Assembly: GCA_963666275.2 (NCBI GenBank)
Contig: CAXXOA010000001.1
Coordinates: forward strand, 1,216,001 to 1,280,000
Direction: 5' to 3'
DNA: 64,000 nucleotides
Origin: Oceanispirochaeta sp.
GTDB taxonomy: Bacteria; Spirochaetota; Spirochaetia; DSM-2461
A program made the position numbers and the translations under genes. Every line of letters begins with the position of its first letter. Positions within the stretch are counted from its first letter, which is position 1. This document shows, piece by piece, positions 26,196 through 32,096 of this stretch. The notes beneath the pieces were generated by a model. It saw nothing but the letters and a program-made list of their open reading frames with translations. It made no database searches and was not told the DNA's origin.

Positions 26196-26378
26196 GTGAC
26201 ATCTAAAGAAGTGATCAGAATTCTGGAAAAGGATGGCTGGTATCTTGTTAATGTGAAAGGGAGCCACTATCAGTTCAGGCACCACCGAAAGAAGGGAAGA
26301 ATTACGGTACCATTCCATAGAAAAGACATTAAGTCCGGAACTCTGCATGCCATTTTAAAGCAGGCGGGTATCAAATGA
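26196..26378 (+). CDS. hicA: HicA-family mRNA interferase toxin
   Basis: 60 aa, KEVIRILEKDGW...KGSHYQF...ITVPFH...GTLHAILKQAG. Confidence 0.93.
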   Translation: MTSKEVIRILEKDGWYLVNVKGSHYQFRHHRKKGRITVPFHRKDIKSGTLHAILKQAGIK

Positions 26379-26395
26379 AATTGAAGAGGTGGAGT

Positions 26396-26779
26396 ATGAA
26401 AAAGTATGTTTATCCCGCAGTTTTTGAACCTGAAGAGGGCGGATATAATGTCAGCTTTCCGGATCTTCCCGGTTGCCTTACCTGCGGTAATGATATGGAA
26501 GATGCTATTAATATGGCTGAAGATGCGCTGAGAGGATTTCTCGAATGGCTGGAAGAGGATAATGAGTCATTTCCGAGGCCAGTGGATCCAAGAAAAGTTA
26601 AATGTTCCAGCAAAGGATTTGTATCTCTTGTTTCTGTTTTTCTCTATCCCATGCACGAAGAAAGATCTGTCAAAAAAACTCTTACCATTCCCAAATGGCT
26701 GAATGATGAGGCGGTTAAAAAAAATATAAACTTCTCCCAGGTTCTGCAGAAGGAGTTGAAGAGGATTGTTCTGCATTAG
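26396..26779 (+). CDS. hicB: HicB-family antitoxin
   Basis: YPAVF...YNVSFPDLPGCLTCG...AINMAEDAL, with C-terminal KKTLTIPKWLN...INFSQVLQ. Confidence 0.93.
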   Translation: MKKYVYPAVFEPEEGGYNVSFPDLPGCLTCGNDMEDAINMAEDALRGFLEWLEEDNESFPRPVDPRKVKCSSKGFVSLVSVFLYPMHEERSVKKTLTIPKWLNDEAVKKNINFSQVLQKELKRIVLH

Positions 26780-28173: not shown

Positions 28174-28764
28174 ATGCATTTCCTGCCGCAGGGACTACAG
28201 GTACCAGACGACTCCTTTTACAACAGCTCCCCCGACGTGGTGGCTGAAAAACTGCTTGGCAAGATCCTGCTGAGGAGATTCCCCGACGGGTCATTCCTGT
28301 CCGGAAGGATCTGCGAAACCGAAGCCTACAGTCCCGAGGATCCGGCATCCCACTCCTATACAGGGATCACGGAACGGAATGCCCCCATGTTCGGCCCCCC
28401 CGGAAGGGCCTATGTTTATCTGATCTATGGAATCCATCACTGCCTGAATGTGGTGACAGGACCGGAGGGAGAGGGGAGCGCCGTACTGATCCGGGGGATA
28501 ATCCCTCTGGAAGGGCTGGATCTCATACGGAAAAGACGGGGATCCGGATTGAAGGACTCTCAGCTCTGCAATGGGCCGGGAAAGATCTGCCAGGCTCTGG
28601 ATCTTGACAGAACCTGGAACCACCATCCATTTCGCCTGGCCCCACTTCAGATTCTCTCGGATTCCCTCCCTGTCCATCCCGGGTGTATTGTTCAGACCCC
28701 CCGGATCGGAATCACCCTCAATGCCGCCGCCCTGAGGCGTTTTTTGTGGGTTCCGGAAAACTGA
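28174..28764 (+). CDS. 3-methyladenine DNA glycosylase (MPG/AAG family)
   Basis: ICETEAY, DPASHS, YVYLIYGIHHCLNVV, AVLIRG, NGPGKICQAL, PRIGI. Confidence 0.93.
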   Translation: MHFLPQGLQVPDDSFYNSSPDVVAEKLLGKILLRRFPDGSFLSGRICETEAYSPEDPASHSYTGITERNAPMFGPPGRAYVYLIYGIHHCLNVVTGPEGEGSAVLIRGIIPLEGLDLIRKRRGSGLKDSQLCNGPGKICQALDLDRTWNHHPFRLAPLQILSDSLPVHPGCIVQTPRIGITLNAAALRRFLWVPEN

Positions 28765-28797: not shown

Positions 28798-28826
28798 TTG
28801 ACCGGATTATCAGGCGGGAGTAATAT
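28798..28826 (+). promoter_or_regulatory. sigma70 promoter for the Ala leader and aminotransferase
   Basis: TTGACC (28798)-N17-TAATAT (28821-28826). The leader ATG follows 7 nt after the -10. Confidence 0.65.
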
Positions 28827-28833
28827 CACTTAC

Positions 28834-28920
28834 ATGAATACGGGTGGAAATATTTCAGTACAGAAACATCTCTGCGCAGCAGCGGCAGCGGCGGCCTCTT
28901 ACAGAGGAATCGACGGCTGA
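28834..28920 (+). CDS. Putative attenuator leader peptide MNTGGNISVQKHLCAAAAAAASYRGIDG
   Basis: 28-aa ORF with seven consecutive Ala codons (28876-28896), followed by a terminator and the aminotransferase gene. Confidence 0.75.
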   Translation: MNTGGNISVQKHLCAAAAAAASYRGIDG

Positions 28921-28940
28921 CCCGTTAATAAGTCAACTAC

Positions 28941-28975
28941 GCCGCGGTTCTTCCAGGGACTGCGGCTTTTTTTTT
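28941..28975 (+). terminator. Attenuator terminator in the aminotransferase leader
   Basis: GCCGCGGTTCT-TCCA-GGGACTGCGGC followed by T9. Confidence 0.85.
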
Positions 28976-29028
28976 ACCTGAAAACAGCAGCGGTTTTGGA
29001 AAGACCCGGGCAGAACAGGAGTAGAACA

Positions 29029-30318
29029 GTGCGACGGAATATTGTCTGGGAGGGAGCGGATCAGCTCCATTACGAAATTCGTGAAATTGTGGGGACGGCA
29101 CACGGTCTTCAGGCGCTTGGAAGGGATATTATCTTCGAAAACATCGGTGATCCTATCCAGAAAGGGGAAGAAGTTCCCCAGTGGATCCGGGACATTGTCA
29201 CCGGTTTGACAAGTCAGAGCAGCAGCTACGGCTATACAGCTACCGAAGGCGCCCCTGAAACCAGGGCCTTTCTGGCGGATCATGTGAACTCCCGGGGGGG
29301 ATGTCAGATCACTTCCGAGGATATCATATTCTTCAACGGACTGGGTGATGCTGTATCCACGGTTTTTGCCTTTCTGAAAAGGGAATCCCGGGTGATCGGT
29401 CCCTCTCCGGCCTATTCCACCCTGTCATCAGCCGAAGCGGCCCATTCGGGTTATGACCACACCACCTACAAGCTGGATCCGGAAAACAACTGGATGCCCG
29501 ACCTGGAGGATCTGGAAAACAAAGTCAGATACAACGATTCCATAGCGGGAATCCTCCTTATAAATCCGGACAATCCCACTGGGGCTGTCTATCCCCCGGC
29601 CATTCTGAAGCAGATCGTGGACATCGCACGGAAGTACGATCTCTTTGTAATCTGCGATGAAACCTATGCCCATATTGTCTACAACGGCGGCGAAACCTGC
29701 CATTTGAGCGAAGCCATCGGAGAGGTTCCCGGCATCGCCATGAGGAGCATCAGCAAGGAGTTTCCCTGGCCCGGTGGACGGTGCGGCTGGCTGGAAGTGT
29801 TCAACAGGCACCGGGACGGCAATTTCGACAGGTTCATCAAAAGCCTTATAGACGCCAAACGGCTGGAAGTCTGTTCCACCACGCTGCCCCAGCTTTCCAT
29901 CCCCCCTGTGTACAGCGATCCCCGCTACAGGGAGCATCTGGACAGACGGAACAGAATCTTCGGCGAGAGGGCAAGGGAAGCTGTGGAGATCCTGAACCGG
30001 GTACCCGGTGTCCGGGTCAATCTGCCCCGGGGCGCCTTCTATCTCACAGTGCTGATCGACAATGACAAAATCAGGAATTTTACCCCTCTCCCCATGGATC
30101 AAAAGGTGGATGAGTATCTGAGCAGCAGGATTGAAAATGCTCCTGCCGATAAAAAACTCGTCTACAATCTTCTGGGAGCAGTGGGGATCTGTACGGTTCC
30201 GCTGAGCGGGTTCTGCTCGGATCTATCGGGATTCCGGGTGACACTGCTTGAACAGGATGATGAAAAACGTCTTAAAATCTGGCACACCCTGGCGGATGCT
30301 CTATCCCGTATGCTCTGA
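29029..30318 (+). CDS. PLP-dependent class I aminotransferase, AlaA (alanine-synthesizing transaminase)-like
   Basis: GTG start after AGGAG. YEIREIV...ENIGDP, INPDNPTG, DETY and SISKEFPWPGGRCGW (PLP Lys). The N-terminus resembles the AlaA YDIRG...LNIGNP segment. Confidence 0.85.
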   Translation: MRRNIVWEGADQLHYEIREIVGTAHGLQALGRDIIFENIGDPIQKGEEVPQWIRDIVTGLTSQSSSYGYTATEGAPETRAFLADHVNSRGGCQITSEDIIFFNGLGDAVSTVFAFLKRESRVIGPSPAYSTLSSAEAAHSGYDHTTYKLDPENNWMPDLEDLENKVRYNDSIAGILLINPDNPTGAVYPPAILKQIVDIARKYDLFVICDETYAHIVYNGGETCHLSEAIGEVPGIAMRSISKEFPWPGGRCGWLEVFNRHRDGNFDRFIKSLIDAKRLEVCSTTLPQLSIPPVYSDPRYREHLDRRNRIFGERAREAVEILNRVPGVRVNLPRGAFYLTVLIDNDKIRNFTPLPMDQKVDEYLSSRIENAPADKKLVYNLLGAVGICTVPLSGFCSDLSGFRVTLLEQDDEKRLKIWHTLADALSRML

Positions 30319-31839
30319 TACCCTGAGGCTCCCATCCCGGGAGATCTCCCAGACCGTATCGGTGAGGGCCCGGGAAAACTCCCTTTCGTGGGAAACCATG
30401 AGCAGAGCCCCCGGGAATCCTCTGAGGGCTTCTTCCAGAAAGTCTACTGAAGGGAGATCCAGGTGATTTTCCGGTTCATCCAGAATGAGGAGGGCCGGGA
30501 TTTCCTCTCGTGTAAGGGAGATGGCCAGGAACACTTTTCTGGCTTCTCCCGGACTCAGCCGGAGGGAGTCTCTCAGGGATTCGGGGTCTGAACCCAGCCT
30601 GGCTACCGCCGAGAGGACTTCCCCTTTCTGTCTGTTCGAAAGACTCTGAAACATCCTTCTGACCTGATCCATCTCATCCGGAGAGAACTCCTGGGGCAGA
30701 TAGAAGTATTCTGATGGATCCAGAGTACCTGACTGGAGGATATGCTTCAGAAGGGTGGTTTTACCCGCTCCGTTGGGGCCTTCCAGGGTGATCCTGTCAA
30801 AGGGCCGCAGGATCAGTTCGGGGATCTCCAGGACTCTCTCTTCCCTGTTCAGGGGCAGTTTCATCCCCCCTGTCTGCCAGAGGCGGTCTCTCTTCAGCTG
30901 TCTGCCCTTCATTGTTATACCGGTGGGATCGGTCCCCTGTCCCTCCAGGTCTGAGAGTTTTCTGCCGGCCTGATCCAGACGTCCGTCCATCTGCCGGAGG
31001 AGTTTTCCTCCGGTTCCGTCCTTTCCGCTGACCCTGACAAGATCCATCCTGGCTCTTCCGTCGGAATCTTTTCTGTCCAGATGCTTTTTCGAACGCCGGG
31101 ACTGCTGGGACGCCGCCAGAGCTCTTCTGCGGGAGGCTTCACTTTCCAGTCTCCGGAGCTCCCGGAGGGCCTGATCCCTCTCTCTCCGGAGGCCCAGCTC
31201 CTTTTTCCGTTTCTCCTCCATCGCCAGAGCGTAATTTCCATGATAGAAGTCACAAGCGCCCTGTTTCAGATAAAGGATTCCCCGGGGAAGCCGGTTCAGA
31301 AGGTATCTGTCATGACTGACAAGGATGCCTATGCCCCTGTACTGCTCCAGAGCCCGGCTAATGGTTTCTCGGGTCTCCCTGTCCAGATGGTTCACAGGTT
31401 CGTCCAGGCAGAGGCAGTCGGGATCTCTGTAAAGGACAGAGGCCAGGAGGAGTTTTTTCTGCTCTCCCTGGCTGAGGGTTTCAATCCTGAAGAACCAGTC
31501 GAAATCCGCCTCCAGCAGGTTCAGCCATTTCAGGGCCTCCTTTTCGCCCTCCAGAGCCGCATCCTGCAGGACCGCTATGGAACTCAGGGCGGAAGGATCC
31601 GCACAGCCCTCCTGGGGAACAAAAATTGTCAGGAACCGGTCGGCCGTATTGCCGCTGATTCGGCCCTGTCGGGGAGTCAGAATGCGGCTTATAAGCTTCA
31701 GAAGGGTGGATTTTCCCGTCCCGTTGGCACCGGCCAGGCCGGTCCAGCCTGAGGGGAATGTGATATTCAGATCGTCAAAGAGTAAAGAGGATGAGTCATA
31801 ACTGAAACTCAGATGGGTAATATGAAGGTATTGGGACAT
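30301..31839 (-). CDS. ABC-F family ATPase (two nucleotide-binding domains, no TM domain)
   Basis: GANGTGKS, LSQGEQ, LDEPVNHLD and VSHDR, then GPNGAGKT, LSPGE, LDEPENHLD and VSHE, separated by a long charged linker. Confidence 0.9.
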   Translation of the reverse strand: MSQYLHITHLSFSYDSSSLLFDDLNITFPSGWTGLAGANGTGKSTLLKLISRILTPRQGRISGNTADRFLTIFVPQEGCADPSALSSIAVLQDAALEGEKEALKWLNLLEADFDWFFRIETLSQGEQKKLLLASVLYRDPDCLCLDEPVNHLDRETRETISRALEQYRGIGILVSHDRYLLNRLPRGILYLKQGACDFYHGNYALAMEEKRKKELGLRRERDQALRELRRLESEASRRRALAASQQSRRSKKHLDRKDSDGRARMDLVRVSGKDGTGGKLLRQMDGRLDQAGRKLSDLEGQGTDPTGITMKGRQLKRDRLWQTGGMKLPLNREERVLEIPELILRPFDRITLEGPNGAGKTTLLKHILQSGTLDPSEYFYLPQEFSPDEMDQVRRMFQSLSNRQKGEVLSAVARLGSDPESLRDSLRLSPGEARKVFLAISLTREEIPALLILDEPENHLDLPSVDFLEEALRGFPGALLMVSHEREFSRALTDTVWEISRDGSLRVSEHTG

Positions 31840-32096
31840 ATAAAAGCTCCGCACAGGAATTTTGAGGCGGCCGGAATATTCCGTTACAGAGATTGGGAGA
31901 AGTGCCGCATACGGATCACTGCCTGTACTGTTTCTTCTCCAATCAGCTTTTAATAATCAATGTCCCCTGTCCTTTTCATTCTGATAAGATATAAAAAATG
32001 GTAACGGGGATTTTCCCCTGCGTCAAGACCGGGACAGGCCAGTTCTGTCATCACCGGACTTCCCGGCCGGAGCCGTTTGAATTATACTGAAGATCT

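Follow-up and report, generated by a model that had tools for sequence, protein, structure and literature searches.

A likely alanine-sensing ribosome-mediated attenuator upstream of a PRK06855 aminotransferase gene in Spirochaetia

Leader anatomy at the aminotransferase locus

An aminotransferase gene of Oceanispirochaeta sp. lies within the 64,000-nt stretch of DNA analysed here (the window, in which all coordinates below are given) and is preceded by a promoter, a short open reading frame (ORF) with a run of Ala codons and an intrinsic terminator. The features of the locus, all on the forward (+) strand, are as follows.

28798..28803, + strand: −35 hexamer TTGACC (promoter scan listing and direct reading)
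28821..28826, + strand: −10 hexamer TAATAT, 7 nt ahead of the leader ATG (direct reading and promoter scan)
28834..28920, + strand: leader ORF with ATG at 28834, 27 further sense codons and TGA at 28918–28920, encoding MNTGGNISVQKHLCAAAAAAASYRGIDG
28876..28896, + strand: seven consecutive Ala codons, GCA GCA GCG GCA GCG GCG GCC, the proposed sensing codons
28886..28899, + strand: region 1, the final four Ala codons and TCT, which form the 5′ strand of the 1:2 hairpin and pair with 28903–28919 in the MFE structure of the free leader
28906..28917, + strand: region 2, 5′ strand of the antiterminator, GGAATCGACGGC, made up of the codons Gly-Ile-Asp-Gly, the last four sense codons, directly before the stop
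28941..28951, + strand: region 3, terminator left arm GCCGCGGTTCT, common to antiterminator and terminator
28956..28975, + strand: region 4, terminator right arm GGGACTGCGGC (28956–28966), then T9 (28967–28975)
29017..29021, + strand: aminotransferase Shine-Dalgarno AGGAG, 7 nt before the GTG (direct reading)
29029..30318, + strand: PLP-dependent aminotransferase, 429 aa, NCBIfam PRK06855, with a GTG start at 29029

An earlier note, made from the sequence alone, had reported much of this anatomy. Its promoter, TTGACC-N17-TAATAT, is present with a 17-nt spacer and scores 9 of 12 matches in the promoter scan, and direct reading bears out its 28-aa ORF with seven mixed Ala codons and no Ala codon outside the run. 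The ribosome-binding site and GTG that it placed after the terminator were likewise confirmed, and the GTG start is backed by an invariant M-R-R N-terminus among 13 aligned orthologues. Because the next gene is convergent, the aminotransferase is the sole gene under the attenuator.

One point absent from the earlier note is that the −10 box abuts the leader ATG, which has no Shine-Dalgarno sequence in front of it. Since the −10 box lies 7 nt before this ATG, and since TTGAC precedes an in-frame ATG by 33–40 nt in 28 of 28 spirochaete leaders (by 35 or 36 nt in 24 of these), the leader mRNA is probably leaderless, with a transcript start predicted on the A of the ATG or on an immediately neighbouring nucleotide. 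Given the lack of a Shine-Dalgarno sequence, translation of the leader would depend on such a start. The source genome appears to use leaderless starts, the corresponding geometry being enriched at real genes: 67% of the 70 sites with a −10-to-ATG gap of 5–8 nt open an ORF of at least 80 aa, as against 11–40% for other gaps.

Mutually exclusive terminator and antiterminator

The terminator claimed for positions 28941–28975 was found there, as a stem of 11 pairs (28941–28966), 7 of them G-C, with a loop of 4 followed by the T9 tract. Region 2 can pair with the whole left arm of this terminator to give an antiterminator, again of 11 pairs, with a predicted energy of −16.3 kcal/mol versus −17.7 kcal/mol for the terminator; the antiterminator duplex has a z-score of −3.3 to −3.5 against shuffles at the source locus, and in the source genus the stop codon marks the exact end of its pairing. 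The earlier note had proposed a smaller 2:3 pairing, CGGC:GCCG plus TGAC:GTCA, which does exist but is merely the inner part of this larger antiterminator, which uses the last four sense codons. We rejected TGAC:GTCA as the main antiterminator, because it is unconserved (for example, in leaders L003, L007 and L008), whereas the pairing of the motif GGAATCG.CGGC (28906–28917) with the left arm (28941–28951) is conserved. The trpL/hisL-type architecture that had been suggested for the locus is complete, comprising the regulatory codon run, the 1:2 hairpin, a 2:3 antiterminator extending up to the stop and the 3:4 terminator.

Folding of the alternative structures, a check proposed in the earlier note, gave a mutually exclusive antiterminator and terminator. 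At equilibrium, masking a ribosome onto the Ala run does not keep the terminator from prevailing, and such folding gave no antiterminated MFE structure in the source genus; truncation of the RNA ahead of the terminator right arm was needed for the switch to the antiterminator to appear. Read-through would therefore depend on co-transcriptional kinetics. The argument that a ribosome at the stop codon masks region 2 uses a general value for the ribosome footprint.

An alignment of 17 sequences was used to evaluate the three helices. The terminator helix is paired in 97.9% of cells, with compensatory changes, and none of 500 shuffles matched it. The antiterminator is paired in 87.2% of cells (slid control, 38–50%) and the 1:2 hairpin in 77.9% (partner-slid control, 25–55%). 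Covariation in the antiterminator is weak: both sides change at one pair, and the paired percentage is reached by 39 of 500 shuffles. Of the 26 spirochaete leaders that were scored, 23 have a duplex z-score of −2 or lower; only about one-third of the scored leaders from Desulfuromonadales do so. The attenuator architecture is retained across spirochaete genera while the sequence changes.

Conservation and specificity of the element

The upstream regions of orthologous genes, which the earlier note had suggested searching, contain an Ala-run or Ala-rich short ORF plus a terminator at 21 of 30 loci from spirochaete relatives; the remaining 9 have the gene but lack the element. The 136 orthologues placed on a tree comprised 42 rows from spirochaetes other than Leptospira, 10 from the Leptospira clade, 34 from Desulfuromonadales and 50 others. 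Within this tree, the element occurs in 28 of the 42 non-Leptospira spirochaete rows, in none of the 10 Leptospira-clade rows and, as a separate clade, in 29 of the 34 Desulfuromonadales rows. Among the other rows it was flagged once (1 of 50, or 1 of 60 with the Leptospira clade counted in), in L075 from Planctomycetaceae; this match to the automatic criteria was rejected as likely false, its ORF lying inside the 3′ end of the upstream gene.

The leader resembles coding sequence. In all 28 spirochaete leaders, the ATG and the GCN run share a reading frame uninterrupted by a stop, and the ORFs are 18–33 codons long. Runs of 3–7 Ala codons are found in the other spirochaete leaders and of 2–8 in those of Desulfuromonadales. 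All four Ala codons are used in the 28 spirochaete runs (GCA 51, GCC 46, GCG 45 and GCT 10), and 26 of the 28 leaders contain more Ala than any other residue, with flanking residues that vary freely. In most Desulfuromonadales leaders, a GGAG-type motif is found within the 13 nt ahead of the ATG. Many clades that lack the leader lie between the two positive clades, and these two differ in translation start (leaderless versus GGAG Shine-Dalgarno) and in terminator sequence, which points to two independent origins of the Ala leader, in Spirochaetia and in Desulfuromonadales, on one enzyme family.

These data bear on whether the short ORF is read by ribosomes at all. The leader ATG of the source locus lacks a Shine-Dalgarno sequence and the alternative structures exist independently of translation, so the hairpins could in principle be set by a ligand or an RNA-binding protein, as in a metabolite- or protein-binding RNA switch with an untranslated ORF. 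We consider this very unlikely: the start codon, the frame, the stop position and the fixed promoter–ATG distance are conserved while other sequence drifts, and most of the Desulfuromonadales versions have the GGAG-type motif. Moreover, the alignment has no conserved unpaired core resembling a binding pocket, and neither the region nor eight related loci gave an Rfam match to account for such a switch. In the Rfam scan of the region, the best matches had E values of at least 0.57, all below gathering scores, and no leader family (His_leader, Trp_leader, Leu_leader, Thr_leader or others) was matched; the scan of the eight related loci returned only a tRNA and one weak unrelated match.

The element is also rare within genomes. 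Of 1,233 terminator-like sites in the 5.27-Mb source genome, two have an upstream short ORF with an Ala run of at least 4, and the site described here is alone in having a run of at least 5. A covariance model of the element had a single match at E ≤ 0.01 in the source genome (E 4.6e-24), and 13 other genomes with a match at E ≤ 1.7e-10 contained one such match each, always adjoining the orthologue. The genome-wide search found no further Ala leaders in the source genome. Weak matches of the model in relatives were examined as candidates and rejected, being other elements with a short ORF and a terminator rather than Ala leaders.

A chance arrangement, with a spurious short ORF and a hairpin that merely serves as terminator of the preceding DNA glycosylase gene, is contradicted by the conservation data, and we regard it as extremely unlikely. 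That gene (28174–28764) has the same orientation and must itself be terminated, and consensus scans of the region did not exceed shuffle expectation significantly on their own, with 4 promoter-like sites found versus 1.8 expected and 3 terminator-like sites versus 2.6. However, the element has its own promoter, accompanies the aminotransferase gene in genomes with different sequence upstream of that promoter and has no counterpart elsewhere in the source genome. Its rarity among the 1,233 sites and its conservation upstream of orthologues thus make chance unlikely.

The regulated aminotransferase

The protein matches PRK06855 with 636.6 bits (cut-off, 443). Only one curated alanine-aminotransferase model, PRK08363, matched it, at 168.2 bits and below the cut-off of 534. 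The closest solved structures are E. coli AlaA (4cvq, E 2.3e-39) and the alanine aminotransferase of P. furiosus (1xi9, E 8.7e-37), and all three enzymes have the class I/II aminotransferase fold (Pfam PF00155). The description of the enzyme as AlaA-like in the earlier note thus holds in that E. coli AlaA is its nearest solved relative, but not as a family assignment, as PRK06855 is a different curated family from those of AlaA and the P. furiosus enzyme. Some relatives carry the JGI name 'alanine-synthesizing transaminase'. We know of no PRK06855 member that has been assayed. Homology, these automatic names and the logic of an Ala leader suggest that the enzyme most likely makes alanine from pyruvate. 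The sub-cut-off score to PRK08363 and an alanine dehydrogenase that the source genome also encodes count against the explanation proposed below.

Proposed mechanism

On the basis of the observed anatomy, alternative pairings and conservation, we think it likely that the element acts on one aminotransferase gene by ribosome-mediated transcription attenuation, with charged tRNA-Ala as the signal; leader translation, its leaderless start, the response to alanine and the reaction of the enzyme are the parts that we infer. In this model, transcription would start about 7 nt past the −10 box, so that the RNA begins at the leader AUG, and a ribosome would load onto the leaderless transcript at that end. 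With alanine in good supply, the ribosome would pass the seven Ala codons and reach the TGA at 28918, where its footprint would cover region 2; region 3 would then pair with region 4, and the terminator and T9 tract would halt RNA polymerase short of the gene. If Ala-tRNA runs low, the ribosome would stall within the run, covering region 1 and leaving region 2 free to pair with the emerging terminator left arm, and the polymerase would read through into the aminotransferase gene. In the absence of translation, region 1 would pair with region 2 and the terminator would form. If the enzyme makes alanine from pyruvate, as is most likely, the loop would be a negative feedback on alanine supply.

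A broader proposal is that two lineages independently placed an Ala-codon attenuator on PRK06855, with a leaderless version in Spirochaetia, in which the sensing ribosome would load at the 5′ AUG just behind the polymerase, and a version led by a Shine-Dalgarno sequence in Desulfuromonadales. We hold the chances of this proposal being correct or incorrect to be evenly balanced.

Comparison with known systems

Classical attenuators (trpL, hisL, leuL, thrL, pheL and ilvL of E. coli and Salmonella) combine a short ORF, in which codons for the regulated amino acid stand in tandem, with regions 1–4 that form mutually exclusive 1:2, 2:3 and 3:4 pairings, the stop codon being sited so that a terminating ribosome masks region 2, and an intrinsic terminator precedes the biosynthetic gene. 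The locus shares the tandem codon run, the four regions, a stop codon placed to let a terminating ribosome mask region 2 and the intrinsic terminator. Unlike the classical systems, it is proposed to sense alanine, targets a single aminotransferase gene, has a leader without a Shine-Dalgarno sequence that apparently starts at the transcript 5′ end, occurs in Spirochaetia and separately in Desulfuromonadales and matches no Rfam leader family.

Our literature searches for an alanine leader or attenuator found only work on mycobacterial whiB7, and no report of a cis-acting Ala leader on an aminotransferase gene. The statement in the earlier note that no Ala-codon attenuator of an alanine transaminase had been described thus stands for regulation in cis, but whiB7 is a partial precedent with AspC in its regulon. 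According to that report, the whiB7 upstream ORF is enriched in Ala (25–40%) and controls a choice between terminator and antiterminator, and the system is induced by alanine starvation and raises the alanine aminotransferase AspC (PMC10274678). The locus is similar in combining an Ala-rich upstream ORF, a terminator/antiterminator choice and a link to alanine aminotransferase. It differs in that the whiB7 ORF is longer, of mixed composition and responsive to many starvations and antibiotics, and controls a transcription factor that acts on aspC in trans (PMC10274678), whereas here a compact run of 4–7 Ala codons would act in cis on an aminotransferase gene and the downstream gene is not that of a WhiB7 transcription factor.

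The breadth of the whiB7 response, in what is the closest precedent, raises the question of whether any slowing of the leader ribosome, by antibiotics or other starvations, might cause read-through, with the GCN run kept mainly to give the 1:2 hairpin a GC-rich strand. Region 1 does include the last four Ala codons, so part of the run could serve pairing rather than sensing. Nevertheless, such a general translation-stress sensor seems unlikely to us, since the run is in the Ala frame in all 28 leaders with all four synonymous codons used, its first three codons lie outside the hairpin and it is kept in leaders whose stop directly follows it (L014, L017, L020 and L027). In addition, an Ala-rich leader of separate origin is found on the same enzyme family in Desulfuromonadales, and the target is an aminotransferase gene, neither a stress nor a resistance gene. 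An alanine-specific attenuator remains the reading that we favour.

A second mycobacterial system resembles the locus in its predicted leaderless short ORF with a run of codons for one amino acid: in leaderless polycysteine ORFs, the preprint describes a stalled ribosome that remodels downstream RNA and switches on cysteine genes (bioRxiv 10.1101/834739). The sensed amino acid is cysteine there and, as proposed, alanine here; the polycysteine ORFs free a sequestered ribosome-binding site and so act on translation (bioRxiv 10.1101/834739), whereas the output at the locus is an intrinsic terminator with a T9 tract.

Implications

Alanine is among the few amino acids for which no classical leader-peptide attenuator is known. 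The element would fill this gap and would show the attenuation mechanism at work in Spirochaetia and Desulfuromonadales; if the two-lineage proposal is correct, it would be the first cis-acting alanine member of this class. The leaderless start would offer a simple natural system for the coupling of a 5′-end-loading ribosome to RNA polymerase, and the compact cassette of about 180 nt is a potential alanine-responsive genetic part. The leader also acts as a built-in functional label, predicting that the widespread PRK06855 aminotransferases make alanine, and two independent origins, if true, would single out PRK06855 as the principal transaminase of alanine synthesis in these anaerobes.

Architecture of the leader

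The earlier note had described, upstream of an AlaA-like aminotransferase gene, a promoter, a leader ORF with seven Ala codons and no others, a terminator with a T9 tail, a ribosome-binding site and a GTG start. Each was found, at the following positions in the window.

Features of the leader and flanking genes
28798–28803, + strand: −35 box TTGACC, read from the sequence
28821–28826, + strand: −10 box TAATAT, after a 17-nt spacer and seven bases before the leader ATG
28834–28920, + strand: leader ORF MNTGGNISVQKHLCAAAAAAASYRGIDG, from ATG (28834) to TGA (28918–28920), read from the sequence
28876–28896, + strand: Ala run GCA GCA GCG GCA GCG GCG GCC, seven codons, the only Ala codons of the ORF
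28941–28966, + strand: terminator hairpin, 11 pairs (7 G-C), loop of 4
28967–28975, + strand: T9 tail, directly 3′ of the hairpin
29017–29021, + strand: AGGAG, 5′ of the aminotransferase GTG
29029–30318, + strand: aminotransferase ORF, 429 aa, GTG start
30301–31854, − strand: gene of an ABC-F ATPase ('ribosomal protection-like'), scoring 287 bits to NF000355 (under the cut-off of 380)

Because the next gene lies on the opposite strand, the terminator governs a single gene; this ABC-F gene is convergent with the aminotransferase gene, and the two share the final 18 bases of the latter. By themselves, consensus scans for the promoter and terminator did not exceed shuffle expectation, and folding of the region as a whole exceeded that of shuffled sequences by a small margin (z −1.82). 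The argument for the element comes from its comparison across genomes and from its uniqueness within its own. Elsewhere in the window, two adjacent small ORFs (60 and 134 aa, overlapping by 4 bases; 26196–26779, + strand) are, by the look of their sequences, presumably a HicA/HicB-type toxin–antitoxin pair.

Conservation and specificity

An orthologue of the aminotransferase (E 2e-141 or better) was present in 35 of 61 genomes of relatives; 30 of these loci were fetched. The search of orthologue leaders suggested by the earlier note, here for an ATG-started short ORF within 400 nt upstream that contains at least three Ala codons in a row and precedes a hairpin and T run, recovered the element at 21 of the 30 spirochaete loci. 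It was absent from nine (L013, L018, L019, L022–L026 and L029), of which L025 retains a short ORF and terminator with merely scattered Ala codons. A wider scan added named loci from Spirochaetaceae, Spirochaetia and Treponema (L032, L071, L081, L083, L084, L086 and L097), as well as two variants with 3–4 Ala codons and no T run (L043 and L056). Conservation of the leader peptides is confined to the Ala run and the final few codons. Alanine makes up 26% of all residues in 28 spirochaete leaders and is the commonest residue in 26 of them, with runs encoded by GCA (51), GCC (46), GCG (45) and GCT (10).

Within the window's own genome (5.27 Mb), 1,233 terminator-like sites were found; a short upstream ORF with at least four consecutive Ala codons occurs at two of them, and one with at least five occurs here only. 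Nowhere else in that genome does a terminator follow a short ORF of leaderless type. With a threshold of E 0.01, a covariance model built from 17 leaders matched there once (E 4.6e-24, window 28834–28974); each of the 13 other genomes with a match at E 1.7e-10 or better likewise had one such match, always adjoining the orthologue.

A putative leaderless start

No Shine–Dalgarno sequence precedes the leader ATG, and 7 nt separate it from the −10 box; at the usual distance from −10 box to transcript start, the first base transcribed would be the A of this ATG. In every one of the 28 spirochaete leaders, TTGAC is followed 33–40 nt later (35 or 36 nt in 24) by an ATG that shares its frame with the GCN run, uninterrupted by a stop. 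The set was selected for some in-frame ATG, so that only the promoter distance counts as independent. Together with the mixed Ala codons of the runs, this points to a short ORF that is probably translated codon by codon. When the window's genome was scanned for TTGACN-N16–18-TANNNT followed by ATG after a set gap, gaps of 5–8 nt gave 70 sites, with 47 ATGs (67%) opening ORFs of at least 80 aa; gaps of 0–3, 10–13, 15–18, 20–23 and 25–28 nt gave 32–49 sites, 11–40% with long ORFs. Because the 5–8-nt gap is over-represented and richer in long ORFs than the others, leaderless mRNAs seem to be common and in regular use in Oceanispirochaeta sp. In four relatives without the attenuator (L013, L018, L019 and L022), the same promoter geometry stands immediately 5′ of the aminotransferase ATG, which suggests that the aminotransferase mRNA itself is leaderless there. 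This geometry reads TTGACC-N18-(−10)-N6–7. At L024, where the attenuator is also absent, there is instead a leaderless ORF of 13 codons, with a stop that overlaps the aminotransferase ATG (ATGA).

Mutually exclusive structures

Folding of the alternative structures, as the earlier note had proposed, yielded mutually exclusive antiterminator and terminator helices. With a ribosome placed on the third Ala codon and the RNA beyond it cut ahead of the terminator right arm, folding gave a single helix, in which GGAATCG-A-CGGC (region 2, 28906–28917) pairs with the complete 11-base left arm GCCGCGGTTCT (region 3, 28941–28951). The TGAC:GTCA pairing put forward in that note is present, but merely as an inner extension of this larger helix. 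The energy of this duplex is −16.3 kcal/mol and that of the terminator stem −17.7 kcal/mol; the duplex has a z of −3.3 against shuffles, and z was −2 or lower in 23 of 26 scored spirochaete leaders (L017 and L020 lie outside the 26; L017 gave −4.1 in a separate folding). The 2:3 pairing stops exactly at the stop codon in the window's genus, begins just past it in leaders with a stop directly after the Ala run, and lies 30–50 nt downstream, behind an extra hairpin, in the longer leaders L016, L028 and L071.

Over an alignment of 17 sequences, pairing reached 97.9% for the terminator, with compensatory changes and at a level that none of 500 shuffles attained. It was 87.2% for the antiterminator and 77.9% for the 1:2 hairpin (28886–28899 with 28903–28919), against 25–55% for slid controls. 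Antiterminator covariation was weak here, in part owing to the shifted pairing register of distant members.

A ribosome is assumed here to cover about 12–15 nt 3′ of its A-site codon. At the TGA (28918) it would thus reach about 28930–28933, masking region 2 and letting the terminator form; waiting at Ala codons 1–6, it would reach about 28906 at most and mask region 1 (28886–28899), so that region 2 could still capture region 3. The terminator remains lower in energy at equilibrium even with the ribosome mask, so the decision must be kinetic, as in classical attenuators.

The regulated enzyme

In a profile search, the aminotransferase belongs to NCBIfam NF005334 (PRK06855; 636.6 bits, cut-off 443), which carries no name beyond 'PLP-dependent aminotransferase'. 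It scores 168 bits against the alanine aminotransferase model PRK08363, under the cut-off of 534. Its best solved-structure matches are E. coli AlaA (4cvq, E 2.3e-39) and a Pyrococcus furiosus enzyme (1xi9, E 8.7e-37). The earlier description as AlaA-like holds as resemblance but not as family membership. JGI automatic annotation names some close relatives 'alanine-synthesizing transaminase', and alanine synthesis is the presumed reaction. The genome also encodes an alanine dehydrogenase (C2:513847–514947, − strand, 511.6 bits to TIGR00518), so the aminotransferase is not the sole possible route between pyruvate and alanine.

Leaders in Desulfuromonadales

An Ala-rich short ORF also precedes a terminator at four Desulfuromonadales loci of the named set. 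The orthologue is present in 59 of 61 sampled genomes of this order, and under looser, Ala-ranked criteria a candidate short ORF with a T run behind it was found at 28 of the 30 loci fetched, with Ala runs of 2–8 and Ala contents of 16–50%. Most have a GGAG-type motif within 13 nt 5′ of the ATG and then a conserved terminator, AAGGCCATGG...CCATGGCCTTTTT. A candidate region 2 lies 8–25 nt before the stop in most leaders, with z at −2 or lower in about a third of those scored, against shuffles of GC-rich windows. The stem AAGGCCATGG...CCATGGCC is nearly invariant across the order, and among the leaders of loci L112–L140 an A-A-R-A motif often occurs a few residues ahead of the main Ala run.

On an unrooted, quick FastTree phylogeny of 136 orthologues (after exclusion of three duplicate loci and of one of the remaining 137, which gave no usable protein), the leader occurs in 28 of 42 non-Leptospira spirochaete rows, 29 of 34 Desulfuromonadales-clade rows, none of 10 Leptospira-clade rows and one of 50 others. 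That one, L075, is probably a false call, as the flagged ORF lies within the end of the upstream coding region. The label needs at least 15 changes, against a shuffled mean of 44. A single old origin with many losses is an admissible reading of a tree that is unrooted and quick; we read the pattern as two probable origins, because many negative clades separate the two positive ones and these differ in predicted leader translation mode and terminator sequence.

Precedents and related leaders

No Rfam family matched the element. The earlier note knew of no described Ala-codon attenuator controlling an alanine transaminase; no cis-acting alanine leader was found in open-access papers and preprints, an older report in a subscription journal being possible, but there is a partial precedent. 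The nearest is the likewise Ala-rich mycobacterial whiB7 uORF (25–40% Ala), termed an 'Ala leader' by its authors; its target is a transcription factor that in turn supports AspC, an alanine aminotransferase (PMC10274678). A second analogue is the leaderless polycysteine short ORFs of mycobacteria, whose reported output is a freed ribosome-binding site and not a terminator (10.1101/834739).

The weaker covariance-model matches proved to be other short ORF and terminator elements rather than Ala leaders. Four loci of a genus without a PRK06855 orthologue (L143–L146, genus g3) have a conserved Shine–Dalgarno-led short ORF ending ...SN(C)NAPVRC*, followed by two successive terminators. At L147 (genome G028, about 200–420), a leaderless 22-codon ORF and terminator precede an ABC-type ATPase gene, which may be another leader-controlled gene. 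At L148 (G045) and L149 (G037), about 200–330 in match orientation, acetolactate synthase large-subunit genes are preceded by leaderless Ile/Leu/Val-rich short ORFs (for example MKRPVSGKSLISILSIIILLNKHSEQGD), each with a terminator, which look like branched-chain amino-acid attenuators.

Together, the element is a real, conserved regulatory element of textbook kind and, judged from sequence, probably an alanine-sensing attenuator; what would be new is its alanine specificity and its putative leaderless start. With the Ile/Leu/Val leaders before acetolactate synthase genes in relatives, leader-peptide attenuation would be more widely used in this class.
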